From the UHGV virus genome UHGV-0209075: a stretch of DNA of 41,775 bases; one strand, 5' to 3'. The position numbers and the translations under genes were made by a program. Position 1 is the stretch's first letter, and every line of letters begins with the position of its first letter. Source of the DNA: a virus. The notes below the pieces were generated by a model that saw only the letters and a program-made list of their open reading frames with translations, did not search any database and had not been told where the DNA came from. Below, in pieces: positions 3,157 through 40,283 of the stretch.

Positions 3157-3235
3157 GTTCACCTCATCTGGTGCCGAACCTTCCTCTGGTTATAATCTGT
3201 GATCCCCCAATCAACAGAACCAGAGGAGGTTCGAC

Positions 3236-3631
3236 ATGGATTTTGCAACTATCACAAGTAGCGTTGTGTTGAGTGCATGTGTTGCTGGCGTGGTTTCGCT
3301 GGTTAATGGTGCCTGGCAACGCAAATCGGAACGAACCATTGAAGCGCAACGCCGGGCTGCTGAAGCCAGGGCTAAAATAAGAGAAATGGCTCTCACCCTC
3401 GCATTGAAAGAATGGGAACTTCACCAAACCATATCGAAGACAAAGGGATATGGTGTCAGCGGCCCGGAAGTTTACGTCTTTCGATACTTTCGTATGCTCA
3501 ACCTGATGGAAGAAGACAAATTCACGATTGAAAATCTCAGACTGATCCAGCACGACTCCATGTGCGCCGTCGCAGCGATTCAGGCAGAGATCGAGCGATA
3601 CCGGGAGAAAAACGGCCTCCCGATGCCATAA
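3236..3631 (+). CDS. membrane-anchored protein of unknown function (cargo gene antisense to the replication operon)
   Basis: ATG 3236 preceded by AGAGGAGG (6-nt spacer) and a TATAAT hexamer at 3191-3196; residues ~5-24 hydrophobic helix, then Arg/Glu-rich helix and ~70-aa C-terminal domain. Confidence 0.6.
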   Translation: MDFATITSSVVLSACVAGVVSLVNGAWQRKSERTIEAQRRAAEARAKIREMALTLALKEWELHQTISKTKGYGVSGPEVYVFRYFRMLNLMEEDKFTIENLRLIQHDSMCAVAAIQAEIERYREKNGLPMP

Positions 3632-3635
3632 GCAA

Positions 3636-3836
3636 TCAGTGTTTTTCATCTTTCCAGATCCTCATATCAGGCTTTCGCCCGATGAACCGGCGAAAACAAT
3701 TTAAAATCCATCGGGTGAAGTAATCCCTGAAACCAAAGAGATACCAGGTGAACAGATTCACGATAAAATGTCCGGCCAGAGCCCCACCGATACCACAGGC
3801 AAGAACAGTAAAAAGATCATGTAGATTCACAGGCAT
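3636..3836 (-). CDS. small hydrophobic protein (66 aa, one predicted TM helix, basic C-terminus)
   Basis: ORF 31 nt downstream of cII-like stop, convergent with 3236-3631 (stop codons 4 nt apart); weak SD so coding status uncertain. Confidence 0.3.
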   Translation of the reverse strand: MPVNLHDLFTVLACGIGGALAGHFIVNLFTWYLFGFRDYFTRWILNCFRRFIGRKPDMRIWKDEKH

Positions 3837-4293: not shown

Positions 4294-4505
4294 GAATCAT
4301 TCTTTCCTTCGTTCGAGGTGCTATCCTGCTTCTTGTAAAGTTCTGGGTTGTATTTCAATTCACCGTTAGTAATTTCATCCAGTTCCATTGCGCGAAGTTT
4401 GGGAATAACTGCTTGCCACCGCACAACAGCCACATGTGAAATTCCAAGAGCCTCAGCTACTAGTCGCTTTTTTTTGAAATAGCGCAGAACATCATCTTTG
4501 AACAT
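4290..4505 (-). CDS. Cro-like HTH regulator (YdaS/Cro type)
   Basis: 71-aa ORF divergent from repressor; HTH segment KKRLVAEALGISHVAVVRWQ; AGGAGA SD 5 nt upstream of ATG 4505. Confidence 0.7.
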   Translation of the reverse strand: MFKDDVLRYFKKKRLVAEALGISHVAVVRWQAVIPKLRAMELDEITNGELKYNPELYKKQDSTSNEGKNDS

Positions 4506-4534
4506 AAAACTCTCCTGTTATTTCGAGCAGGAGG

Positions 4535-4596
4535 GTAACAATAGTTACATAGCAATGTCAACCATAGCAACATCACTTGGTAGTAACATTGGTTAC
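4535..4596. promoter_or_regulatory. OR-like operator region: two 14-bp dyads GTAAC-N4-GTTAC (4535-4548, 4583-4596) in the repressor/cro intergenic region
   Basis: GTAACAATAGTTAC and GTAACATTGGTTAC, centre-to-centre 48 bp; the second abuts the repressor ATG at 4597. Confidence 0.5.
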
Positions 4597-5271
4597 ATGA
4601 AAAACACTATCAGCGAACGTATTCGGAATCGTCGAAAAGACGTTGGATTAACCCAACAGCAGGTTGCGAAAGCAATCGGCATATCTCGTGTATCCGTAAC
4701 AAAATGGGAAAATGGCTCTTCAAAACCTGACGGTGAGAATTTGCATCTACTGTCAAAATTGCTTTCCAAATCTCCTGAATGGATTCTTTATGGAAAGGAC
4801 GGTCACGATAAAACCGATGATCTGCGTCTGAATCAGTATCTTTACATTAGTGACAACATCGCCCGGTTGCCCGTTTTAACGTGGGAACAGGCTGGTTATT
4901 GGGATATGAGTTGTCCAGTAACCGAGATTCCTGGCATTAAGAATTGGGTTGATGTCATGACAAAAACCGCTGAAAACTCTTTTTTATTGCATGTTGAGGG
5001 AGATGCGATGACAAACTCTAACGGCCTCCCAACCATCCCCGATGGATCTACCGTGCTGATCACACCATGCTCAAGTAACATTAGAGAACTGGTGGGAAAA
5101 ATAATCTTAATCCAATTGGAAGGAACGCCAAACGTAACACTAAAAAAAGTTGCGATTGACGGACCAAACATCTATCTGTTGTCACTGAATCCGCTTTACA
5201 AACCCATCGAACTGAATGGTGGTTACACCATTAAAGGTAAAGTTTCACAAATACATCAATACTTAGACTGA
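4597..5271 (+). CDS. cI: CI-type repressor (HTH_XRE N-domain + LexA/S24-like C-domain) with Ala at the nucleophile position (GDAM instead of GDSM)
   Basis: HTH LTQQQVAKAIGISRVSVTKWENG; C-domain motifs HVEGDAMTNSNG and VTLKKV align by eye with lambda CI EVEGNSM / FTFKKL; start taken at ATG 4597 (ORF-track ORF begins at TTG 4498). Confidence 0.8.
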   Translation: MKNTISERIRNRRKDVGLTQQQVAKAIGISRVSVTKWENGSSKPDGENLHLLSKLLSKSPEWILYGKDGHDKTDDLRLNQYLYISDNIARLPVLTWEQAGYWDMSCPVTEIPGIKNWVDVMTKTAENSFLLHVEGDAMTNSNGLPTIPDGSTVLITPCSSNIRELVGKIILIQLEGTPNVTLKKVAIDGPNIYLLSLNPLYKPIELNGGYTIKGKVSQIHQYLD

Positions 5272-6283: not shown

Positions 6284-6578
6284 ACTGACAGTTTACTGAA
6301 AGGATATTTCTCTGAAAAGTCAGAGCATAACGCGAAAGCACACGGAGAAGCTCGTCTCTCTGTACTTTGTCGTTAAATTTAATTCGACCGTGCGCTTCCG
6401 GTTGTGGCAATCCGCGAAATGGCGCGGCGGTAAGTATGGCGGGGTTATTCCTTCCCCTTGAGGACACCGGGTTGTCAGGCTGACCATACGCTTAAGTGAC
6501 AGCCACGCCACAATATCCATGTGTAGTCTTTGGTGGCATCAGTTCTACTCCGTGACTGCTCTGCCGCCCTTTTTAAAG

Positions 6579-6749: not shown

Positions 6750-6938
6750 ATGGAAACGTTATTACCAAACGTTAATACGTCTGAAGGTTGTTTTGATATT
6801 GGTGTTCTGCTCAGTAACCGGGAGTTTACGGAAGATGCCATTAAGATGAGAAAATATGAACCTTATCTTCTCAATGATAATTCCATACTTTCCAGAATTG
6901 CCCTTCTTGAACTTGGTATTATCGGAGAACAGCAGTGA
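6750..6938 (+). CDS. small protein (62 aa), AT-rich cargo gene; function unknown
   Basis: ATG 6750 preceded by GAGGA (7-nt spacer); lower GC than neighbours. Confidence 0.4.
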   Translation: METLLPNVNTSEGCFDIGVLLSNREFTEDAIKMRKYEPYLLNDNSILSRIALLELGIIGEQQ

Positions 6939-7123
6939 CTTCAGCATTTGCGCTGGTGATGACCGTTTTTCTTATAACGGGTGAGCCACAAAATGTGATT
7001 ACCGGAATTTATGACAGTAAGTCATCCTGCATTCAGGTAAGGGACGAACAAAAAATCCCCGGTGAATGCCTCCCGTTAAAAAAAGTATCGCTGAACCTGA
7101 ATAACGAAATACCGGCTGGATAA
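6935..7123 (+). CDS. small protein (62 aa) with N-terminal hydrophobic segment and two Cys; function unknown
   Basis: GTG 6935 overlaps the upstream stop (GTGA) and is preceded by GGAG (7-nt spacer), indicating translational coupling. Confidence 0.4.
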   Translation: MTSAFALVMTVFLITGEPQNVITGIYDSKSSCIQVRDEQKIPGECLPLKKVSLNLNNEIPAG

Positions 7124-7218
7124 CCCGCCAGCCATATTAACGCCATACCAACGGATTAAAAATGCCAGCAATGGCAGGGATTCGTTCACCCTGAAATCTG
7201 TAATGAGGTTAAAACACA

Positions 7219-9693
7219 ATGAGTAAAATCTTTATTTGCGCTGCTATTCCTGACGAACAGGCCATAAAAGAAGATAGCGCTGTTGCGGTGGCCACTGCCA
7301 TTGAAGCCGGTGATGAACGTCGCGCCCGCGCAAAATTTCACTGGCAATTCCTGGAACATTATCCGGCTGCTCAGGACTGCGCTTATAAATTTCTTGTTTG
7401 CGAGGATAAACCCGGTATACCCCGCCCTGCCCTCGATTCCTGGGATGCTGAATATATGCAGGAAAACCGCTGGGATGAGGAATCCGCTTCCTTTATTCCG
7501 GTCGAACCAGAATCCGATCCGATGAACGTCAATTTTGACAAGCTGTCCCTTGAAGTACAGAACGCGGTCCTGGTTAAGTTCGGTACATGTGAAAACATCA
7601 CCGTTGATATGGCGATTGACGCGCAGGAATTACTGCAGGAAGACGTTGCTACCTTTGACGGGCATATCGTTGAAGCACTGATGAAAACGCCTGAAATTAA
7701 CGCTATGTATCCGGAACGCAAACTGTTCGCTATCGGATGGGTTAAACACAAATGTAATCCGGGTGCCAAATGGCCAGAAATTCAGGCTGAATTACGTAAC
7801 TGGAAAAAACGGCAGGACGCAGAGCGCAAAGAGACTGGAAAATACACGTCTGTTGTTGATCTCGCCCGCGCCAGAGTCAATCAACAGCACACTGAAAACT
7901 CAGCAGGAAAAATCAACCCAGTCACTGCCGCCATTTGTCGCGAATACAAGCAGACATGGAAAACGCTGGATGAAGAACTGGCCTACGCTCTCTGGCCTGG
8001 CGATATTGATACCGGAAACATTGACGGCAGCATCCATCGCTGGGCAAAAAATGAAGTTATCGACAAAGATCGCGAAGACTGGAAGCGCATTTCCGCATCA
8101 ATGCGCAAACAACCCGATGCCGTTCGCTACGACCGTCAGACTATTTTTGGCCTTGTCCGTGAGCGTCCGATCGACATTCACAAAGATCCCGTAGCACTGA
8201 ACAAATACATCACTGAATACCTGACTACCAAGGGCGTGTTTGAAGATGACGAAGGAACAAATCAGGGCACAGCTGGTACTCTCCCGTCACCAGTACCAGA
8301 AACTGATGCAGTGGAAACGGCAATGCCGGACAACGAAAAAACCGAATGCGAAGTGGAAGACGAACCATCTGTAGAGCGTGAGGGACCGTTCTACTTCCTT
8401 TTCACCGATAAGGACGGCGAAAAATACGGTCGCGCAAACAAACTTTCTGGTCTGGAAAAAGCACTGGCCCTGGGAGCTACGGAAATCACAAAAGAGGAAT
8501 ACTTCGCACGTAAAAACGGCACGTACTCAGGTTCACAACAAAATACTGGTGCATCTGACACGATCGCACAACCAGAGCCGGTAAAAGTTACCGCTGACGA
8601 AGTAAACAAAATTATGCAGGCAGCCAATATCAGCCAGCCTGACGCCAATAAGTTGCTTGCTGTATCACGTGGTGAATTTGTTGCAGGGATTAGCGCCCCG
8701 AATGATCCGAAATGGGTGAAGGGGATTGAAACCCGCGATTCAGTGAATCAGAACCAGCAAGAAACGGAACAGAACGGCCAGAAAGCGGAACAAAACAGCC
8801 CAAATGCGTTACAAAACGAGCCAGAAACGAAACATCCTGAACCAGTGGCGCAACAGGAAGTGGAAAAAGTCTGCACCGCCTGCGGTCAGACCGGCGGCGG
8901 CAACTACCCTGATTGTGGCGCGGTGATGGGCGACGCAACATACCAGGAAACATTCGATGAAGAGTATCAGGTTGAAGTTCAGGAAGATGATCCGGAGGAA
9001 ATGGAAGGCGCTGAACATCCACACAAGGAGAACACTGGCGGCAATCAGCATCACGATAGCGATAATGAAACTGGCGAGACGGCAGATCACTCAATTAAGG
9101 TGAACGGTCATCAAGAAATCACATCCACCAGCAGGACGTGTGACCATCTAATGATCGACCTTGAAACCATGGGAAAAAATCCTGATGCCCCGATCATCTC
9201 AATAGGTGCAATATTTTTCGATCCGCAAACCGGAGATATGGGACCGGAATTTAGTAAGACTATCGATCTGGAAACTGCTGGCGGAGTCATTGATCGGGAC
9301 ACCATTAAATGGTGGCTTAAGCAATCACGCGAAGCGCAATCTGCCATTATGACCGATGAAATCCCGTTAGATGATGCACTGTTACAATTGCGGGAATTTA
9401 TCGACGAAAACTCCGGTGAATTTTTTGTTCAGGTCTGGGGAAATGGAGCCAACTTCGACAACACGATTTTGCGCCGTTCATACGAACGGCAGGGGATCCC
9501 CTGCCCGTGGCGTTACTACAACGATCGCGATGTACGCACAATCGTTGAGCTGGGGAAGGCCATAGACTTCGATGCCAGAACGGCTATTCCATTCGAAGGT
9601 GAGCGCCATAATGCACTTGATGACGCCCGTTACCAGGCAAAATACGTTTCAGCTATCTGGCAAAAACTGATCCCGAGTCAGGCTGATTTTTAA
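7219..9693 (+). CDS. large early-left protein with C-terminal DEDDh (DnaQ-like) 3'-5' exonuclease domain
   Basis: Exo motifs MIDLETMG, WGNGANFDNTIL and HNALDDARYQAKY in roughly residues 645-810; Glu/Gln/Asn-rich acidic linker; N-terminal ~340 aa unassigned. Confidence 0.7.
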   Translation: MSKIFICAAIPDEQAIKEDSAVAVATAIEAGDERRARAKFHWQFLEHYPAAQDCAYKFLVCEDKPGIPRPALDSWDAEYMQENRWDEESASFIPVEPESDPMNVNFDKLSLEVQNAVLVKFGTCENITVDMAIDAQELLQEDVATFDGHIVEALMKTPEINAMYPERKLFAIGWVKHKCNPGAKWPEIQAELRNWKKRQDAERKETGKYTSVVDLARARVNQQHTENSAGKINPVTAAICREYKQTWKTLDEELAYALWPGDIDTGNIDGSIHRWAKNEVIDKDREDWKRISASMRKQPDAVRYDRQTIFGLVRERPIDIHKDPVALNKYITEYLTTKGVFEDDEGTNQGTAGTLPSPVPETDAVETAMPDNEKTECEVEDEPSVEREGPFYFLFTDKDGEKYGRANKLSGLEKALALGATEITKEEYFARKNGTYSGSQQNTGASDTIAQPEPVKVTADEVNKIMQAANISQPDANKLLAVSRGEFVAGISAPNDPKWVKGIETRDSVNQNQQETEQNGQKAEQNSPNALQNEPETKHPEPVAQQEVEKVCTACGQTGGGNYPDCGAVMGDATYQETFDEEYQVEVQEDDPEEMEGAEHPHKENTGGNQHHDSDNETGETADHSIKVNGHQEITSTSRTCDHLMIDLETMGKNPDAPIISIGAIFFDPQTGDMGPEFSKTIDLETAGGVIDRDTIKWWLKQSREAQSAIMTDEIPLDDALLQLREFIDENSGEFFVQVWGNGANFDNTILRRSYERQGIPCPWRYYNDRDVRTIVELGKAIDFDARTAIPFEGERHNALDDARYQAKYVSAIWQKLIPSQADF

Positions 9694-9708: not shown

Positions 9709-9734
9709 GCCGCTAACCGTATATAGTTAGCGGC
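9709..9734 (+). other. 9-bp-stem hairpin between exonuclease gene and excisionase-like gene
   Basis: GCCGCTAAC-cgtatata-GTTAGCGGC; no clean U-tract, so attenuator or protein-binding site rather than strong terminator. Confidence 0.3.
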
Positions 9735-9751
9735 GGTTATGAGATATAGCT

Positions 9752-9955
9752 ATGAGTAGCTTATTTTTAACCGAAGATGAATTGCTAATATTAACGGGCT
9801 GCAAATATGCAAGCCACCAGCGAAAATGGTTAACGGAAAACGGGCTTCCGTTCTATACCAATCGTAGTGGCAAACCGATTGTCAGCCGGGATCTATTTAC
9901 CTGCAATAAAACTTTACCACCACGCGAGGTAGAGCCGAATTTTGGTGCAATCTGA
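9752..9955 (+). CDS. excisionase-like small DNA-binding protein (candidate recombination directionality factor)
   Basis: 67-aa ORF whose TGA overlaps the integrase ATG (TGATG at 9953-9957); position immediately upstream of int; weak SD. Confidence 0.45.
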   Translation: MSSLFLTEDELLILTGCKYASHQRKWLTENGLPFYTNRSGKPIVSRDLFTCNKTLPPREVEPNFGAI

Positions 9956-10980
9956 TGGGAAGACGAAGGAAAAATCCTGAACACGAAAAACTACCTCCAA
10001 ATGTATATCCAAATAAATATAGTTATGTATGGAAACCAACATCCAGAGAATCTGTCACACTAACCGCCATCAAGGATGGTTTAGCTGCTTTATGGAAAAG
10101 GTATGAGGAAACTGTAAATAATCGCGATCGCGCAATGACATTCGGTCGCTTGTGGGAAAAATTCCTCGCCAGCGCCTATTACAGTGACCTCAGTCCAAGA
10201 ACACAAAAAGATTATCTGCAACATCAAAAAAAGTTGCTTGCCGTATTCGGTAAGGTGCCGGCAGATTCCATAAAACCAGAACACATCCGTCGATACATGG
10301 ACCAGAGAGGGGGGCAGAGTAAAACGCAAGCCAACCATGAAAAAAGCAGTATGTCCCGCGTTTACAGTTGGGGATATGAGCGAGGGTACGTGAAGGCTAA
10401 CCCATGTGCAGGTGTAAGTAAATTCAAGGCCAAAAACCGCGAACGATATGTAACCGACAAAGAATACCAGGCAGTATTAAGCGTTGCACCTCTTCCTGTT
10501 TTTATCGCAATGGAAATTGCCTATCTGTGTGCAGCGAGGGTTTCCGATGTGTTATCGCTGAAATGGGAGCAGATTGGAAACGACGGGATCTTTATCCAGC
10601 AAGGGAAAACAGGGAAAAAACAGATAAAAGCATGGAGTCCACGATTACAGGCGGCGATCGAAAAAGCAAAACAGTTACCAACATCCGCCTATGTAATCAG
10701 CAATCAATACGGCAACCGATATATGTACAAAGGCTTTAACGAAATGTGGGTAGAAGCAAGAAATCGCGCAGGCAAAATTTCAGGTATTTTAACCGACTTC
10801 ACCTTTCATGATCTGAAGGCGAAAGGAATTTCAGACTATGAAGGAAGCAGCCGGGATAAGCAACTTTTCTCTGGTCACAAAACCGAGGGGCAAGTGCTAA
10901 TCTATGACAGGAAGGTTAAAGTTTCACCGACACTTGATGTCCCGTTACCTGAAAATATTCCAAGAAAATATTCCAAGTAA
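9955..10980 (+). CDS. int: tyrosine integrase, lambda Int family
   Basis: N-terminus MGRRRKNPEHEKLPPNVY resembles lambda Int MGRRRSHERRDLPPNLY; 341 aa; adjacent to att core. Confidence 0.85.
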   Translation: MGRRRKNPEHEKLPPNVYPNKYSYVWKPTSRESVTLTAIKDGLAALWKRYEETVNNRDRAMTFGRLWEKFLASAYYSDLSPRTQKDYLQHQKKLLAVFGKVPADSIKPEHIRRYMDQRGGQSKTQANHEKSSMSRVYSWGYERGYVKANPCAGVSKFKAKNRERYVTDKEYQAVLSVAPLPVFIAMEIAYLCAARVSDVLSLKWEQIGNDGIFIQQGKTGKKQIKAWSPRLQAAIEKAKQLPTSAYVISNQYGNRYMYKGFNEMWVEARNRAGKISGILTDFTFHDLKAKGISDYEGSSRDKQLFSGHKTEGQVLIYDRKVKVSPTLDVPLPENIPRKYSK

Positions 10981-10987
10981 TTCCAAG
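10952..10987 (+). repeat. direct repeats ATTCCAAG (x3, including tandem 13-mer AAAATATTCCAAG x2) at the int 3' end; fourth copy at 11199-11206; candidate Int arm-type sites
   Basis: Copies at 10957-10964, 10970-10977, 10980-10987 and 11199-11206, all in the same orientation, flanking the att core on both sides. Confidence 0.4.
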
Positions 10988-11032
10988 TGTGATTTTTGTC
11001 ACTGACTTAATGATGTGTAAGTGATTGAATTT

Positions 11033-11093
11033 TGGCGGAGAGAGGGGGATTTGAACCCCCGGTGGAGTTGCCCCCACTCCGGTTTTCGAGACC
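11033..11093 (-). other. attP core: 3' ~61 nt of a tRNA-Ser(CGA)-like gene (anticodon loop to CCA) without the 5' half
   Basis: Minus-strand GGTCTCGAAAACCGGAGTGGGGGCAACTCCACCGGGGGTTCAAATCCCCCTCTCTCCGCCA has anticodon loop, long variable arm, T-arm GGTTCAAATCC and acceptor 3' strand plus CCA; sequence 5' of it is not tRNA-like. Confidence 0.6.
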
Positions 11094-11394
11094 GATGATA
11101 CAGAGTCGAAAAATCAAAGAGTTAAAAACTTTTCTTGGAATAAATGTCTTAAAATCGTACACGAAAAATCAATAAATTACATAACATTAAAGAAGAATAT
11201 TCCAAGCCTTCTTGAGGCCACCACCTGTTTTCAGGTGTCATTCAGACGTGATTTACCCCAGATTGGGTAAGCACGCTTTTTTTCTCAGCTTATTCCGTTT
11301 TGCCTGTGTGTTGAATAATTCCACTGCAGTTATATAAAATCGGTAACGGCTGGAAATCATTCAATACTAGCACTATCGAAAGTTAACCAGCCAA

Positions 11395-11440
11395 CCGCAG
11401 TATCCTGTCATGACAAGTTACTGCGGCTTTTTACTTTTTA
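11395..11440 (+). terminator. strong hairpin + U-tract beyond attP (tI/sib-like position)
   Basis: CCGCAGTA...TACTGCGG 8-bp outer stem with internal TGTCA/TGACA pairing, followed by CTTTTTACTTTTTATATTT. Confidence 0.5.
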
Positions 11441-11443
11441 TAT

Positions 11444-11731
11444 TTAACGGATCAACATCCAGATCAGCAGACACGCCACCACCGGCACAGCAAAATCCAT
11501 CAGGCTTGCCACATCCCACGCGCGTGGATCAAAACCGCCCCACCACGGCATGTTAATCCGCTTGCCATGCCCGAACATTTCAATCCAGCGATATTCTGCC
11601 TGGGTGTGTTCACGCGCAATGAAGAACGTACAACCGGCTATCGCCCCGTAAGCCCAGTTTCCGGTAAAAAGACCAGCCAGCCCCTGTACCGCCACAGCAC
11701 AAATTGCATGAAGTATCGGCGTGATATCCAT
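11444..11731 (-). CDS. small integral membrane protein (95 aa); function unknown
   Basis: ATG 11731 preceded by AAGGGGAG; hydrophobic N- and C-terminal segments; last gene of the minus-strand late arm before attP. Confidence 0.5.
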   Translation of the reverse strand: MDITPILHAICAVAVQGLAGLFTGNWAYGAIAGCTFFIAREHTQAEYRWIEMFGHGKRINMPWWGGFDPRAWDVASLMDFAVPVVACLLIWMLIR

Positions 11732-11740
11732 CTGCTCCCC

Positions 11741-12019
11741 TTAAAACCACTCCCTGAGCGGGCGCTCTGGTGTAACCACCCACTCACGGAACACGGAATC
11801 CTCAAATCCATCGTCAAGAAGACGGATATTAACAAAGTACCCTTCGTTTCGCGTGTATTCTGGTTCTCCGTCATCAGAAACATCTGTCTCCCTGAACGTA
11901 AAACCAATCTCATCAACCAGAACGGCATTCTGCAGCTCTTCGTCCTCTTCCCAGTTAAGTTTCCTGAGAAATGCCCTGAAATCTGCTTTATCACTGAAAC
12001 GCAACGTGAAATCTCTCAC
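11741..12019 (-). CDS. small acidic protein (92 aa); function unknown
   Basis: GTG 12019 overlaps the stf stop (GTGA) and is preceded by GGGGAGG (7-nt spacer). Confidence 0.45.
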   Translation of the reverse strand: MRDFTLRFSDKADFRAFLRKLNWEEDEELQNAVLVDEIGFTFRETDVSDDGEPEYTRNEGYFVNIRLLDDGFEDSVFREWVVTPERPLREWF

Positions 12020-14079
12020 TCCACAACCTCCCCAAGCTGCGCATCTGTTAGCTCTTTATGCCAGAGACGAAAATTCCTCACATGCCCAAATAAATGGCGT
12101 AATCCTGCTGTAGTTTGTCCACCAATGCGAATGGTTGCTGTACTCCGGATATATTCCCATTTGGTTTTAGTTTCGCTGCTTAACTTACCGTTACTGACTA
12201 CACATGTGGACCGTTCGGACTTTACCCGCATACCAATAAGCATTTTTTCCAGCCCGGCATTTTCATTTATTCGTCGGTCTGAACCACCTATATCGCAATA
12301 CGGAAAACCGTCGTACCCACCTGATGAACCAAACCCCATTACGATCCCCGCTCCGGTTTGATGACCGCCGGTATCAAAAACACGCGGCGCTACATTTGGC
12401 GTTTTATACCAGTTCTTATGTACCTCACAAAGAACCGTAAAAGGAAGATTATAAAGGTTATTCTTGATTGGGACTGTCACCATATCGCTTGCCCGCGTTG
12501 CCGGTGCCGTCCCCGTAACAATAAAAGATGATGCGCCTGTACCAGCCTCAATCTGTGGAGTGGTTACATCGAGATAATCCCCTGATGTAACCATCTGCCC
12601 TGTATCCGGAGAATACTGGACAAAACCACCAACCGTATTTTCTGTTGTATCTGCTTTTAATGTAGCCTCAAAAAATATCCAGCCAGTTGCATCATCCTTA
12701 ACAGACCTTGCTGTAACACGGCTTGTCTGACCTGTCTTGCTAATTATGCGGGTGGTAAGGTTCAGGTTTGCTGCTCCTATTGATGTCCTTACCTCCCCAT
12801 CATAATGTTCAAATAAAATACGAACGGCGATATTATCAACTTCACTTTTTACCCGACAGGATATAGTTACATGCTTTTCGTCCCCTGAAGTATCAACCCC
12901 TCCGGTACTCGAATACAGTCCGATAATGGTATGCGCTTTACTTGTACCAACAATCGAATCCTGTACGACAAACCGACCATAATTAAACCCGAAACTATCT
13001 GTGCCTGTTTCTGTAACGTCCAGTGAAGTTGACTTATTCCACTTCGAAGGGTCTGTACTGTTCTGGAAGAAGTTCGTTCTTTGTCCCTCAATAAGCAGGC
13101 CATCACACTCAAATCGCGGCTCATTAATTTCCGCCGTTTTCAGTTCGCCAGATTTGTTGATATATGTTGCCGTTGATGCGCGACTGAAATTAACCTGTTT
13201 ATCACTGGCAACCTGAACCACATTATCACCAATCTTCACTTTTTTATAACCCGGAGAATAGCCCGTAATCATATCCAGCGAATCATTAAAGGGTATCCAC
13301 ACATCCGGCAGCGGCTGTAAAACATATCTGTACGGCTCTGCTGTCTGGTTTGCGTATTCTCTGGCAGCATCTTCACTTGCTTTTGCTGCCGTCTGGCTTG
13401 CTGCCGATGCTTTCGCCGAGTTCGCCGCCGCTGTTTCGCTCACCTTTGCGTTGGCTTCACTGTCTTTGGCATTCGTCTCACTGGTTTTCGCTGCCGTCTG
13501 GCTGGATTTTGCGTTTTTTTCGCTGGCCTTTGTGGCTGTCTCGCTATTTTTCGCGCTGGTTTCTGATTTTTTGGCTGCTGTCGCGGAGTTTGCCGATGCA
13601 GTCTGCGAGGCCGCTGCCGCCTGTGCGCTGTTAGCTGCATTCGTTTCTGAGGTTTTCGCCGCATTCTTCGATGAGGCTGCTGCCGTTTCGGATTTCTTTG
13701 CCGCCGCTGCACTCTGTGATGACGCTCCGGCATGACGTGCCACTTCATTCACCATCAGCTCAAAACGGCGCAGTGCCTCCGGACGAACATCATCCTCCGT
13801 CATGGCGCCGAGAAAATCATTCAGCGTACCTGGTCTGGAACCTTCATAGACGGTAATGGTCCCGGCATGTGAAGGCGGAAAATCTTCAACCAGCAGGGTG
13901 ACGCTGTACTGGCCATACTCAACATCCATGCTGTAACGCCCGGCTTCATCCGGATTTTCAGAGGCCACCGTGTTCACCACCACCGTGCTGCTGGTCCGTC
14001 TGGCCTTCAGCACAATGGTGCAGTTCTGTACTGGTTTTCCTGTGCCATCTTTAAGCACGCCAGAAATTTTTACTGTCAT
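12016..14079 (-). CDS. stf: side tail fibre protein
   Basis: N-terminal ~130 aa very close by eye to lambda Stf (VKISGVLKDGTGKPVQNCTI...), Ser/Ala/Lys/Glu-rich repeat shaft, divergent C-terminal domain. Confidence 0.85.
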   Translation of the reverse strand: MTVKISGVLKDGTGKPVQNCTIVLKARRTSSTVVVNTVASENPDEAGRYSMDVEYGQYSVTLLVEDFPPSHAGTITVYEGSRPGTLNDFLGAMTEDDVRPEALRRFELMVNEVARHAGASSQSAAAAKKSETAAASSKNAAKTSETNAANSAQAAAASQTASANSATAAKKSETSAKNSETATKASEKNAKSSQTAAKTSETNAKDSEANAKVSETAAANSAKASAASQTAAKASEDAAREYANQTAEPYRYVLQPLPDVWIPFNDSLDMITGYSPGYKKVKIGDNVVQVASDKQVNFSRASTATYINKSGELKTAEINEPRFECDGLLIEGQRTNFFQNSTDPSKWNKSTSLDVTETGTDSFGFNYGRFVVQDSIVGTSKAHTIIGLYSSTGGVDTSGDEKHVTISCRVKSEVDNIAVRILFEHYDGEVRTSIGAANLNLTTRIISKTGQTSRVTARSVKDDATGWIFFEATLKADTTENTVGGFVQYSPDTGQMVTSGDYLDVTTPQIEAGTGASSFIVTGTAPATRASDMVTVPIKNNLYNLPFTVLCEVHKNWYKTPNVAPRVFDTGGHQTGAGIVMGFGSSGGYDGFPYCDIGGSDRRINENAGLEKMLIGMRVKSERSTCVVSNGKLSSETKTKWEYIRSTATIRIGGQTTAGLRHLFGHVRNFRLWHKELTDAQLGEVVE

Positions 14080-33321: not shown

Positions 33322-33861
33322 ATGGATATTAAAGATAAAATCAATACCATTTTGTTATGTGACATTGCCATCCACCTAGGTATCGAAACTGATATTGATC
33401 CACAGCTTGTTAAATATGCTGTGTCATCTGGTAATGATTGGGTTATCAAGGCCGAATATTCACATTTGGATGTTGACGAACCAAGTAAAGAAGATCGTGA
33501 TTTTGTTACTGCTGTCTTGAATATGTATCGCGGACTTTCCAATGCTTTCAGGAAACTTAGTGATGACGAGCAAAAAGAATTAGTCCGTGACCATCATCTA
33601 AAAATACATGATGGGGCAATTCAGCTCCCAGGTTTCGACGGTAATAATGAATGCGATTACTTCAGTATCATTGAGGCATATCAGAAAATTGATCGCTTCC
33701 CCGAACAGAAACAGCCCATTGCCAATACTCATTCACGTACAGAACATCTCTATAACGCAATGCTTGATGAGTTTAAGAAAATTGACGCTGTAAATCGAAG
33801 CTGGGATTTATCGAAGGAAGAACTGGCATCCATTCTTTCCACAGCTCCACGCAGTTTCTAA
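33322..33861 (+). CDS. YfbU-like (UPF0304-like) protein, AT-rich cargo gene antisense to late operon
   Basis: ATG 33322 preceded by AGAGGG (7-nt spacer); by-eye resemblance to E. coli YfbU as I recall it; about 38% GC. Confidence 0.5.
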   Translation: MDIKDKINTILLCDIAIHLGIETDIDPQLVKYAVSSGNDWVIKAEYSHLDVDEPSKEDRDFVTAVLNMYRGLSNAFRKLSDDEQKELVRDHHLKIHDGAIQLPGFDGNNECDYFSIIEAYQKIDRFPEQKQPIANTHSRTEHLYNAMLDEFKKIDAVNRSWDLSKEELASILSTAPRSF

Positions 33862-36844: not shown

Positions 36845-36984
36845 TGGACCGTATAACAAACACTCAATCAATACTTAACAGAACTTTTATTTTTGACAAA
36901 CATATAATATTTTCAACAATATCCTGAGCCAGGTATATTTCAGTATAAGGCTCTGCCGGAAGGAATCTGGAAGAATGAATATAG

Positions 36985-37058
36985 CGCGCTGTACTGGATT
37001 CGAACCAGTGACCGATTGCTTAGAAGGCAATTGCTCTGTCCGGCTGAGCTAACAACGC
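36985..37058 (-). tRNA. tRNA-Arg (anticodon UCU)
   Basis: Hand-folded cloverleaf: acceptor GCGTTGT/ACAGCGC, D-stem GCTC/GAGC, anticodon stem ATTGC/GCAAT with loop CTTCTAA, T-arm ACTGG-TTCGAAT-CCAGT. Confidence 0.8.
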
Positions 37059-37158
37059 TGAATACCGATAATGGACCGCCATCGGGGACCCGCCCCCGCA
37101 CCAACAACCCTGTTATCGCGTCGTCTGCTCTTCCTGATAAGCTAATGGCGGTTTGTGA

Positions 37159-37234
37159 TGGTGGCCCTTGCTGGATTTGAACCAGCGACCTGGCGATTAT
37201 GAGTCGCTCGCTCTCACCACTGAGCTAAAGGGCC
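37159..37234 (-). tRNA. tRNA with CAU anticodon (Ile2/lysidine-type or Met), CCA encoded
   Basis: Hand-folded cloverleaf: acceptor GGCCCTT/AAGGGCC, anticodon loop CTCATAA, T-arm GCTGG-TTCAAAT-CCAGC; resembles E. coli ileX by eye. Confidence 0.8.
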
Positions 37235-37377: not shown

Positions 37378-38199
37378 TTACCTAGTTACCTTTTTTAACT
37401 GCCGCTCAGCCCATGCTTCTTCAATATCAAACCGGGTCACCAGCGCATCATAGAATTTCTTAACTGTTTTTTCCCATGACGCGCGTGTTATCTGGTTTGT
37501 CACCTCGCATATAGCATTAAATGCCTCCGTTGATGGCAGCCTTTCACAGCCACGACCACCACAACGCTGGCAATCTCTGATAACAGGCATACCACGTTTT
37601 ACCGACTCTTCACGATGAATGGCGACACCACGCCCACGGCAATCCTTACAGGCGGTGGAAACCTCACCCTTTCCGCCACACTCCGGACAGGCAACTTTTA
37701 CCACCTCCCTGACTTTTTTCCATTCTTCCCAGTAAGACGGATACACGCCTTTTGTGCACTTTGCCCACACTGGTGGCTTACCATCCGGATACTGGATCTT
37801 GTTTGTAAAAACCTCGCTTTCAATAAATTTTTTTCCGTGACAGCAGGGGCACTGTTTTTTGCTCGCCGCGCTACGGGCATAATCTTCAAACGCATACGAA
37901 GCCATAATGCGCATCACTACCGGTTTTATTTCTGCCGGAAGTTTTCTCAACGCCGCCACACGATCGCACCGACTGAGTGCATAATCTGCCAGTAATTCTG
38001 TTGCCCGCGCCCTGTCATTCATACTGATGCCCATTTTCCCCAGGAACGCAGAAAACCCCATCTCAGCCCGATTCTGTGTCATGCCCTGCGCGGCCATCAC
38101 ATCAGTGATACTCAGCGCATCTTTTGACGTTGAGGCCGATACATCGGTCAGGCCAGGGGATTTTGGGGAGTAGTATTTCGGTAAATCTTCCAGTTTCAT
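37378..38199 (-). CDS. late antiterminator Q (zinc-binding, resembles Quu-type prophage antiterminators)
   Basis: N-terminal YSPKSPGLTDVSA...TDVMAAQGM and multiple CxxC pairs; start overlaps rusA stop; followed by PR'/tR' candidates. Confidence 0.75.
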   Translation of the reverse strand: MKLEDLPKYYSPKSPGLTDVSASTSKDALSITDVMAAQGMTQNRAEMGFSAFLGKMGISMNDRARATELLADYALSRCDRVAALRKLPAEIKPVVMRIMASYAFEDYARSAASKKQCPCCHGKKFIESEVFTNKIQYPDGKPPVWAKCTKGVYPSYWEEWKKVREVVKVACPECGGKGEVSTACKDCRGRGVAIHREESVKRGMPVIRDCQRCGGRGCERLPSTEAFNAICEVTNQITRASWEKTVKKFYDALVTRFDIEEAWAERQLKKVTR

Positions 38200-38570
38200 T
38201 TTTTGACCTGCTCTTCATGCATTATGGGGTAAATCTTCACCCCCATACGTCCACCAGATACTGGCTGACCACGAACGATATTGATTTCATCAAACTGCTC
38301 ATCGTCCATTAACACTCCCGCATGCGTCAGCGCATCCAGCGGTGCTTTCAGGATATTGTCCAGGTCGCGACGACGCTTATCCGGTGGCTCTGCAATCACC
38401 TTTATCGCCAGCCTTCCGGACAGGCTTAATTTCAGCCGCTGCTGGCGAACAATAAGCGCCACAGCCCGGCGATAACGCTTTCCCTCCTCCGAGATAAAAT
38501 ATGTGCTGCCACGGCGTCGCCAGTAAGTGTTCACCGTCGGCGGGTAAGGTAAAACCAAATCTATGAGCAT
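38196..38570 (-). CDS. rusA: RusA-family Holliday junction resolvase
   Basis: LPYPPTVNTYW...DKRRRDLDNILKAPLDALT matches RusA motifs. Confidence 0.85.
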   Translation of the reverse strand: MLIDLVLPYPPTVNTYWRRRGSTYFISEEGKRYRRAVALIVRQQRLKLSLSGRLAIKVIAEPPDKRRRDLDNILKAPLDALTHAGVLMDDEQFDEINIVRGQPVSGGRMGVKIYPIMHEEQVKK

Positions 38571-40070: not shown

Positions 40071-40226
40071 TTACTCCTCAGGTTCGTAGACTGTGAAGAC
40101 AGCGACCTCCGTCTGGCCGGTTCGAATTCGTACCTCGCAGAGGTCTTTCCTCGTTACCAGTGCCGTCACTATGACGGTTAAACAGATGACGATCAGGGCG
40201 ATTAACATCGCCTTTTGCTGCTTCAT
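40071..40226 (-). CDS. hok: Hok/Gef-family type I toxin
   Basis: MKQQKAMLIALIVICLTVIVTALVTRKDLCEVRIRTGQTEVAVFTVYEPEE is near-identical to E. coli HokD/RelF as I recall it; AAGGAG SD. Confidence 0.8.
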   Translation of the reverse strand: MKQQKAMLIALIVICLTVIVTALVTRKDLCEVRIRTGQTEVAVFTVYEPEE

Positions 40227-40283
40227 AGCCTGCTTCTCCTTGCCTTTCGGCACGTAAGAGGCTAACCTAGATTTGCCGTTCAT
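40071..40283 (-). CDS. mok: mok-like in-frame N-terminally extended reading frame over hok
   Basis: ATG 40283 opens a 70-codon frame ending at the hok stop, as I recall for chromosomal mok/hok loci. Confidence 0.5.
   Translation of the reverse strand: MNGKSRLASYVPKGKEKQAMKQQKAMLIALIVICLTVIVTALVTRKDLCEVRIRTGQTEVAVFTVYEPEE

Follow-up and report, generated by a model that had tools for sequence, protein, structure and literature searches.

A ydfE-type early gene of a lambdoid phage encodes a multimodular protein with a predicted DexA-like 3'-5' exonuclease domain in the slot of a recombination module

We analyzed a 41,775-nucleotide stretch of viral DNA, UHGV virus genome UHGV-0209075 (the window), with emphasis on a gene at positions 7219..9693 of the plus strand. 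The only long open reading frame (ORF) of this interval begins with an ATG codon and encodes a protein of 824 amino acids. It is the intact form of ydfE, a pseudogene of the Qin prophage of Escherichia coli K-12, and is an ordinary gene that is already represented in RefSeq, PHROGs, and Pfam. The protein was divided into modules with the aid of an AlphaFold model built on 61 relatives, the confidence of which is given as predicted local distance difference test (pLDDT) values. The gene and its parts are as follows:

7219..9693, + strand: ydfE-type gene, intact, encoding a modular early protein (ORF list, translation, PHROG 2082, identity to K-12 ydfE)
7205..7208, + strand: Shine-Dalgarno sequence GAGG, 10 nucleotides 5' of the ydfE-type ATG (read from the sequence)
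7219..7863, + strand: module A, amino acids 1-215, presumably Pfam YdfE_N; a small alpha/beta sandwich followed by helices (pLDDT >90)
7864..8268, + strand: module B, amino acids 216-350 with a folded core at 240-345, presumably Pfam YdfE_C; all-alpha (pLDDT >90)
8254..8379, + strand: acidic disordered linker 1, amino acids 346-387 (pLDDT ~33)
8380..8553, + strand: module C, amino acids 388-445; two beta-hairpin strands plus helices (pLDDT >90)
8641..9093, + strand: module D, amino acids 475-625, mostly disordered, acidic and glutamine-rich from about amino acid 500; shared with Rac RecE
8872..8916, + strand: zinc-knuckle-like motif CxxC-x7-(C/Y)xxC, amino acids 552-566, with Y563 in place of the third cysteine (regular-expression match)
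9145..9660, + strand: DEDDh 3'-5' exonuclease domain of the DexA/Rv2179c type, amino acids 643-814 (Pfam PF16473)

An earlier reading of the locus, made from the letters of the DNA without database searches (the sequence-only reading), had placed a DEDDh 3'-5' exonuclease domain at the C-terminus of this protein, and the domain searches bear this out. Pfam family PF16473 (Rv2179c-like 3'-5' exoribonuclease) matches amino acids 643-814 (E=1.5e-67; 227.1 bits, cutoff 27), spanning profile positions 2-177 of 177; a weak RNase_T match was also returned. The three motifs picked out in that reading amount to a complete DEDDh set: Exo I is DLETMG at amino acid 647 (D647, E649), Exo II is GNGANFD at amino acid 741 (D747), and Exo III is HNALDD at amino acid 797 (H797 and D802, spaced H-x4-D). 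Seven other cluster representatives carry the domain, and six of them have this catalytic pentad intact. The seventh, P0233 (752 amino acids), has a lysine for the Exo I glutamate and an alanine for the Exo II aspartate; it keeps the rest of the domain and is apparently catalytically dead. The sole structure in the PDB with sequence similarity is that of T4 DexA (8kel/8ken; E=1.5e-6), the motif I of which was aligned. AlphaFold modeled the DEDDh domain poorly, with few aligned sequences covering it, and PADLOC gave only a generic match to a CRISPR-associated DEDDh protein (E=1.3e-5). The predicted nuclease thus belongs to the DEDDh class (DnaQ/RNase T/DexA) rather than to the PD-(D/E)XK class.

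Substrate choice by DEDDh enzymes is not readable from sequence. One alternative is that the protein is an exoribonuclease that trims RNA 3' ends in the manner of Rv2179c, acting for example on host RNAs or on the early transcript that yields the small RNA DicF. We consider this improbable: the only sequence match in the PDB is a DNase, DexA being a 3'-5' DNA exonuclease (PMC12153337), and the alternative C-terminal domains that occur on the same N-terminal modules, described below, are DNA enzymes.

Ahead of the nuclease, AlphaFold predicts three N-terminal domains with pLDDT >90 (amino acids 1-215, 240-345, and 388-440) and disorder at amino acids 345-385 and 501-659, with pLDDT falling to ~30 in the latter segment. 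The acidic low-complexity linker of the sequence-only reading is evident both from this disorder and from composition: aspartate plus glutamate make up 28% of amino acids 345-390 and 22% of amino acids 500-640, the latter against 6% for lysine plus arginine. The same reading had described an unassigned N-terminal domain of ~340 amino acids, which is real and folded but no longer unassigned, since newer Pfam releases contain YdfE_N and YdfE_C. Our local copy of Pfam, which lacks these two families (PF27430 and PF27432, respectively), gave no match for amino acids 1-640. Both are recorded on proteins 99-100% identical over amino acids 1-473, including full-length 824-amino-acid entries, and the assignment was made indirectly through these precomputed matches on near-identical proteins. 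No match with E<2 was obtained when the full-length model was searched against the PDB with Foldseek, and fold searches with module A gave no significant match. For the zinc-knuckle-like motif, the third cysteine position is a tyrosine in 56 and a cysteine in 35 of the retrieved homologues, RecE and P0121 being among those with cysteine; because both states are so common, metal binding by the motif may be dispensable or polymorphic.

Comparison with the mEp460 copy gave ratios of non-synonymous to synonymous substitution rates (dN/dS) of 0.12 for module A, 0.13 for module B, and 0.05 for module C, the strongest constraint in the protein, with 0.27 for the exonuclease domain, 0.52 for module D, and 0.84 for linker 1. 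Given the low ratios in the modules and exonuclease domain, all folded parts of the protein are kept by purifying selection, while the linkers are relaxed. The gene is also common. The protein shares 87% of its residues with K-12 ydfE over amino acids 1-256, i.e., the stretch that precedes the IS2 truncation, and is 99.8% identical to RefSeq genes labeled 'exonuclease' or '3'-5' exonuclease'; PHROG 2082 ('exonuclease') matches it over its full length. Among complete E. coli genomes, matches spanning 80% or more of the gene occur in 3511 of 5426 (65%), at a median of two places per genome; the gene is also carried by the plaque-forming phages mEp460_ev081, Tritos, HannyBb, and Evi. The copy at the Stx2a_JNE phage locus is fragmented and was uninformative. 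Literature searches turned up no functional work on this protein.

These observations bear on the notion, already disfavored, that the gene is a decaying prophage remnant without current function. It draws on the K-12 copy, which is an IS2-truncated pseudogene, and on the P0233 cluster, which has lost two catalytic residues. However, the ORF in the window is intact and has a good ribosome-binding site, dN/dS is 0.05-0.27 across the folded domains, and the gene is carried by plaque-forming phages and by 65% of complete E. coli genomes. We therefore judge decay to be extremely unlikely.

The gene lies within an early operon whose order, repressor ... DicF - dicB - ydfD - ydfE - xis - int, matches that of K-12 Qin:

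4498..5271, + strand: CI/LexA-type repressor (Pfam HTH_3 and Peptidase_S24), upstream of the early left operon
6518..6569, + strand: DicF small RNA (Rfam RF00039, 58.3 bits against a gathering threshold of 48), 5' of dicB as in K-12 Qin and Tritos
6750..6938, + strand: dicB, cell-division inhibitor, in the same operon (Pfam DicB, E=3.7e-38)
6935..7123, + strand: ydfD-type gene (DUF1482; Pfam E=2.8e-15), directly 5' of the ydfE-type gene, the same position as in K-12 Qin
9752..9955, + strand: DUF4224 xis-like gene (Pfam E=2.8e-16), directly 3' of the ydfE-type gene
9955..10980, + strand: tyrosine integrase (Pfam Phage_integrase)

From this arrangement, the ydfE-type gene is probably expressed from the leftward early promoter. 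Two further claims of the sequence-only reading concern this setting and both hold. The gene occupies the slot in which lambdoid phages carry exo/bet or recE/recT, in the same early-left-operon position as recE of Rac; and no RecT/Bet/Erf-like ORF intervenes between it and xis/int, as the next genes are those at 9752-9955 and 9955-10980. A perfect 9-bp inverted repeat with an 8-nucleotide loop (GCCGCTAAC ... GTTAGCGGC) occupies 9709-9734, after the stop codon of the exonuclease gene and before the start of the xis-like gene; it is not followed by a T-run and could form a regulatory or processing hairpin.

Comparison with RecE shows a relationship confined to parts of the protein. By BLASTP against the 1048-amino-acid RecE of phage Rac-SA53, only amino acids 475-622 align, with 72% identity to RecE amino acids 471-611; in the aligned RecE stretch, an acidic tail comes after a CxxC-x7-CxxC motif. 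A weaker phmmer match pairs RecE 295-418 with amino acids 262-384 (E=9e-6). The NCBIfam RecE equivalog model NF007259 scores 271.7 bits against a cutoff of 1269 and aligns only to amino acids 448-626. The PD-(D/E)XK family PF12684, which is present in RecE, had no Pfam match in the ydfE-type protein, and the PF06630 N-terminal domain of RecE has no counterpart there. We considered module A as a homologue of PF06630, but the hhalign probability was 11% and homology is not claimed. Because the RecE nuclease and the partner protein RecT are absent, the label 'exodeoxyribonuclease VIII' that such proteins often bear is, on domain content, a misnomer.

These shared parts are relevant to a second alternative, namely that the protein is a counter-defense nuclease that destroys the multicopy single-stranded DNA (msDNA) of retrons, the cDNA of defense-associated reverse transcriptases, or oligonucleotide signals. 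The position of the gene in the early operon is of a kind that fits anti-defense genes. In addition, module B and the linker are shared with RecE, the occupant of this slot in Rac, and RecE degrades the msDNA of retrons both in vivo and in vitro (bioRxiv 10.1101/2020.06.22.160242). Against this, RecE triggered the retron toxin rather than serving as an escape factor (bioRxiv 10.1101/2020.06.22.160242), PADLOC revealed no sequence link to any defense system, and the other heads of the family (annealase, RecE with RecT) point to DNA recombination. Counter-defense appears to us no more probable than RNA trimming, and hence a doubtful explanation.

The family to which the protein belongs is small and combinatorial. 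An exhaustive search with amino acids 1-473 against 1.84 billion cluster representatives yielded only 191 relatives; phmmer was used to dissect 61 sequences, namely the window protein and 60 long relatives. Pfam recognized Exonuc_VIII in 17 of these, DUF3799 (PDDEXK) in 11, and the Rv2179c-like family in eight. The N-terminus is either module A or the PF06630 domain of RecE, and modules B and C usually come next, module C being present in many relatives. Each of the two N-terminal types is found with either nuclease; for instance, module B is 66% identical to the same module in P0141, a protein with a RecE-type N-terminus. Of the 61 aligned proteins, 30, among them the window protein, have module A, which precedes four kinds of C-terminus. 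Across the 61 sequences, these comprise a RecE-type nuclease (11), the DEDDh domain (8), a tail of 300 amino acids (21), and a helical tail of 240 amino acids (11).

The 300-amino-acid tail, which has the signature KKSLTDAxKKALSxLGFSADVxLGLYD, is predicted to adopt a Rad52 fold, with fold searches returning the folds of human RAD52 and yeast Mgm101. A hidden Markov model search with the profile of this 21-member group against PDB sequences gave nothing, and Pfam Rad52_Rad22 reached just E=0.12, on a stand-alone homologue; its assignment as a putative Rad52-type annealase rests on the fold search. Relatives that end in this tail, including gp07 of Pectobacterium phage ZF40 (L006:2648-4810) and L016:5001-7148, share modules A-C. 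They are annotated as 'exonuclease' (PHROG 2489 and 7838; 'putative exonuclease' in ZF40) and contain no recognizable nuclease domain; proteins of the ZF40 gp07 type look like fusions of the scaffold with an annealase. The 240-amino-acid tail (PHROG 26058; P0126, P0202, and nine others, e.g., L017:5001-7109) has the motif QQLTxAALQGLCANP and matched no family or structure.

The genes next to these heads differ in a regular manner. All head types occupy one slot, after kil/dicB-type genes. recT follows the PD-(D/E)XK-ended genes in all three contexts examined, namely Rac recE, P0130, and P0208; the latter two encode A-type proteins with the RecE nuclease at the C-terminus, and their RecT proteins are 39% and 36% identical to Rac RecT, respectively. 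For DEDDh-ended genes, xis/int follows directly in five of five mutually divergent lineages (window, P0141, P0250, P0268, and P0244) and recT in none. A Gp157-family gene comes directly after the Rad52-ended genes in both contexts examined, and xis/int comes after the gene with the fourth C-terminus. Partner genes therefore follow the type of head, not the scaffold. A tblastn search with a relative that combines module A with the RecE nuclease did not reveal the complete combination in any phage record.

Because the same modules precede either a separate Rad52-fold annealase or a RecE nuclease, the N-terminal region appears to behave as a shared scaffold or targeting module. A wider form of this idea is that the YdfE/RecE N-terminus is a general targeting module that would deliver interchangeable DNA-end effectors (5'-3' nuclease, 3'-5' nuclease, Rad52-type annealase, and the fourth domain) to one common structure, e.g., DNA ends, RecBCD, SSB, or the replisome. 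The N-terminal region of RecE is dispensable for recombination. If this idea is correct, the common DEDDh version would be a stand-alone effector beyond classical recombination, in phage exclusion or counter-defense. We put it forward tentatively, as a minority view.

We searched for an annealase at several levels. Scans of the early ORFs with Pfam and PHROGs found no match to RecT, Redbeta/Bet, Erf, Rad52, or Sak, and a six-frame search of the whole 41.8-kb window gave nothing at E<=10 for three RecT queries, a Rad52-like profile, or Gp157. The C-terminal region of RecE (amino acids 612-1048, nuclease included) had no phmmer match in any frame of the window. No annealase is listed in the RefSeq annotation of near-identical prophages or in the annotation of Tritos. 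The N-terminal region of the ydfE-type protein likewise showed no similarity to RecT, Redbeta, Erf, or Rad52, whether in sequence or in fold. The suggestion of the sequence-only reading that this region could be an annealase thus finds no support, given also that the same modules are fused to a separate Rad52-fold domain elsewhere; comparison with these Rad52-ended paralogues leads us to propose that the scaffold itself is not an annealase.

A true recombination exonuclease could nevertheless be envisaged if its annealase had gone unrecognized, either within the N-terminal modules or in a small ORF. The exo/bet or recE/recT slot is occupied by this gene, the protein has parts in common with RecE, and several early ORFs have no family assignment. 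However, a 3'-5' nuclease leaves 5' tails, which is the wrong polarity for the known pathways mediated by single-strand annealing proteins (SSAPs; Red/RecET). Nor was an SSAP signal found in the N-terminus or in any frame of the phage, and if the N-terminus could anneal DNA, the paralogues in which it is fused to a separate Rad52-type annealase would be carrying a redundant activity. Such a role is very unlikely. In this respect the sequence-only reading, which doubted that the protein is a recombineering exonuclease, was well founded: the nuclease is of the DEDDh fold family, the RecE model scores 272 of the required 1269 bits, no SSAP is detectable in the phage, and among relatives recT follows only genes for the PD-(D/E)XK nuclease. 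That reading overlooked the relatedness to RecE, the identity of the gene as ydfE, and its commonness. Action on host or defense nucleic acids, as it also proposed, is possible.

The resemblance to DexA raises a further alternative, that of an HREX-like nuclease for inter-phage exclusion or defense, which would digest the modified DNA of competitors such as T-even phages to the benefit of the lysogen or the developing phage. The neighboring genes of the dicB operon have host-modifying functions, and DicB has a protective role. The domain of the ydfE-type protein is homologous to DexA, and there is a precedent in EcD (HAK9828821.1), a DexA homologue of E. coli. According to a 2025 paper, EcD digests T4 DNA containing 5-hydroxymethylcytosine (5hmC) while leaving unmodified DNA intact, and it confers protection against T4; the paper also finds Escherichia to be the genus with the highest frequency of DexA homologues (PMC12153337). 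However, EcD is a different protein, as judged from its cloning primers (MIDTET start and another C-terminus), and a 20-mer scan of viral contigs for EcD matched just one unrelated contig. In DexA, W152 is said to recognize 5hmC, as is D169, and loss of D90, a residue of tetramerization, is said to make EcD safe for its host (PMC12153337). W152 aligns with a tyrosine in the window protein, with tryptophan, tyrosine, or valine among relatives; D90 is retained; and the D169 region falls outside the DexA alignment. Furthermore, gene order suggests that the gene is under repressor control and silent in the lysogen, and the PADLOC match (E=1.3e-5) is generic only. Exclusion of competitors is thus unlikely, if slightly less so than counter-defense.

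On balance, we favor the interpretation that the protein is a tethered, DexA-like 3'-5' DNA exonuclease that sits in the recombination slot as a stand-alone enzyme rather than as one half of a Red or RecET pair, and we regard this as probable, though with considerable room for doubt. The N-terminal scaffold (modules A, B, and C), which long acidic disordered linkers join to the DEDDh head, would tether or target the protein to some partner. The head would in turn trim free 3' ends, and its substrate would be DNA and not RNA because the nearest characterized relative, DexA, is a DNase and the alternative heads act on DNA. The result would be stand-alone processing or degradation of 3' ends, working with host functions and the RusA protein of the phage.

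Several points weigh against this interpretation. The N-terminal modules match nothing of characterized function in either sequence or fold searches, and their scaffold property derives from an argument of domain architecture. Both polarity and preference for DNA over RNA are predicted from family membership, and Rv2179c, which gives the Pfam family its name, is an RNase. The pattern of partner genes is drawn from three, five, and two contexts for the respective head types. An annealase of a novel family among the small early ORFs, e.g., that at 3164-3649 on the minus strand, is possible. Finally, candidate roles are several, comprising end processing, nucleotide scavenging (as for DexA), phage exclusion, counter-defense, and RNA trimming.

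Beyond the early operon, the window represents a complete lambdoid phage with an HK97-type head, a lambda-type tail, a Q/RusA/DUF968 region, and lysis genes; its DUF968 gene encodes an HNH-like protein. The following features were also recorded:

3164-3649, - strand: ORF of 161 amino acids between the replication-initiator and ydaT-like genes, with no Pfam or PHROG match
33322-33861, + strand: ORF of 179 amino acids on the strand opposite to the late genes (YfbU E=6.5e-12; faint Cfr10I/Bse634I match, E=1.5e-3)
36984-37234, - strand: tRNA-Arg(TCT) and tRNA-Met(CAT), just downstream of Q and before the lysis genes
37378-38199, - strand: Q antiterminator
38196-38570: RusA
40071-40283, - strand: HokD-like type I toxin (Pfam HOK_GEF E=6e-22), between the replication genes and the DUF968/RusA/Q genes

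The ORF at 33322-33861 is a possible moron or item of defense cargo. The integrase gene leads straight into tail-fiber genes of the opposite strand (window 9955-14079), with no host DNA in between. As tail-fiber genes rather than host DNA adjoin int, the window is most readily read as a circularly permuted or circularized phage genome, or as part of a tandem prophage. A tandem arrangement is seen in E. coli M15, where a head-to-lysis block lies on both sides. The ORF at 11567-12361 on the plus strand was considered as host mtfA, as found in strain AR_0017, and rejected; the window runs on into tail-fiber genes, as in M15.

While the gene itself is already known, the survey of its architectures and the annotation errors thereby exposed are mildly new. 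Proteins called 'exodeoxyribonuclease VIII / RecE' without the RecE nuclease or RecT call for correction, as do Rad52-ended paralogues miscalled 'exonuclease'. For the mining of prophages, a large 'exonuclease' beside xis/int need not signify a recombineering system. Moreover, the occurrence of the same modules with four heads at one genomic position offers a testable handle on the function of RecE-like N-termini.

Among known systems, RecE of Rac is alike in position, in the same early-left-operon slot between kil-type genes and xis/int, and in its parts, with a linker region that is 72% identical and a segment (amino acids 295-418) homologous to module B. Both proteins are long and carry their nuclease C-terminal to a large region of uncharacterized function. 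They differ in that RecE combines a PF06630 N-terminal domain with a PD-(D/E)XK 5'-3' nuclease and is followed by recT, whereas the ydfE-type protein combines a YdfE_N N-terminal domain with a predicted DEDDh 3'-5' nuclease and has no recT. The likeness to annealases of the Rad52/Sak type is limited to paralogues, ZF40 gp07 for example, and there to the C-terminal domain; the window protein is without a Rad52-type domain.

K-12 ydfE (b1577, Qin) lies in the same operon, dicF - dicB - ydfD - ydfE - int, but is cut by IS2 after ~256 codons, so that module C, the linker, and the exonuclease domain are missing. EcD/HREX is likewise a DexA homologue encoded by E. coli, though its sequence differs, going by the primers, and it is apparently short and stand-alone. 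T4 DexA (8kel/8ken) is a free-standing protein of 227 amino acids from a virulent phage with modified DNA, whereas the domain described here forms the C-terminal 180 amino acids of an 824-amino-acid protein of a temperate phage. Rv2179c of Mycobacterium tuberculosis (PDB 4hec), the namesake of PF16473, is a small bacterial exoribonuclease; for the ydfE-type protein, by contrast, genomic context and fusion partners point to DNA.

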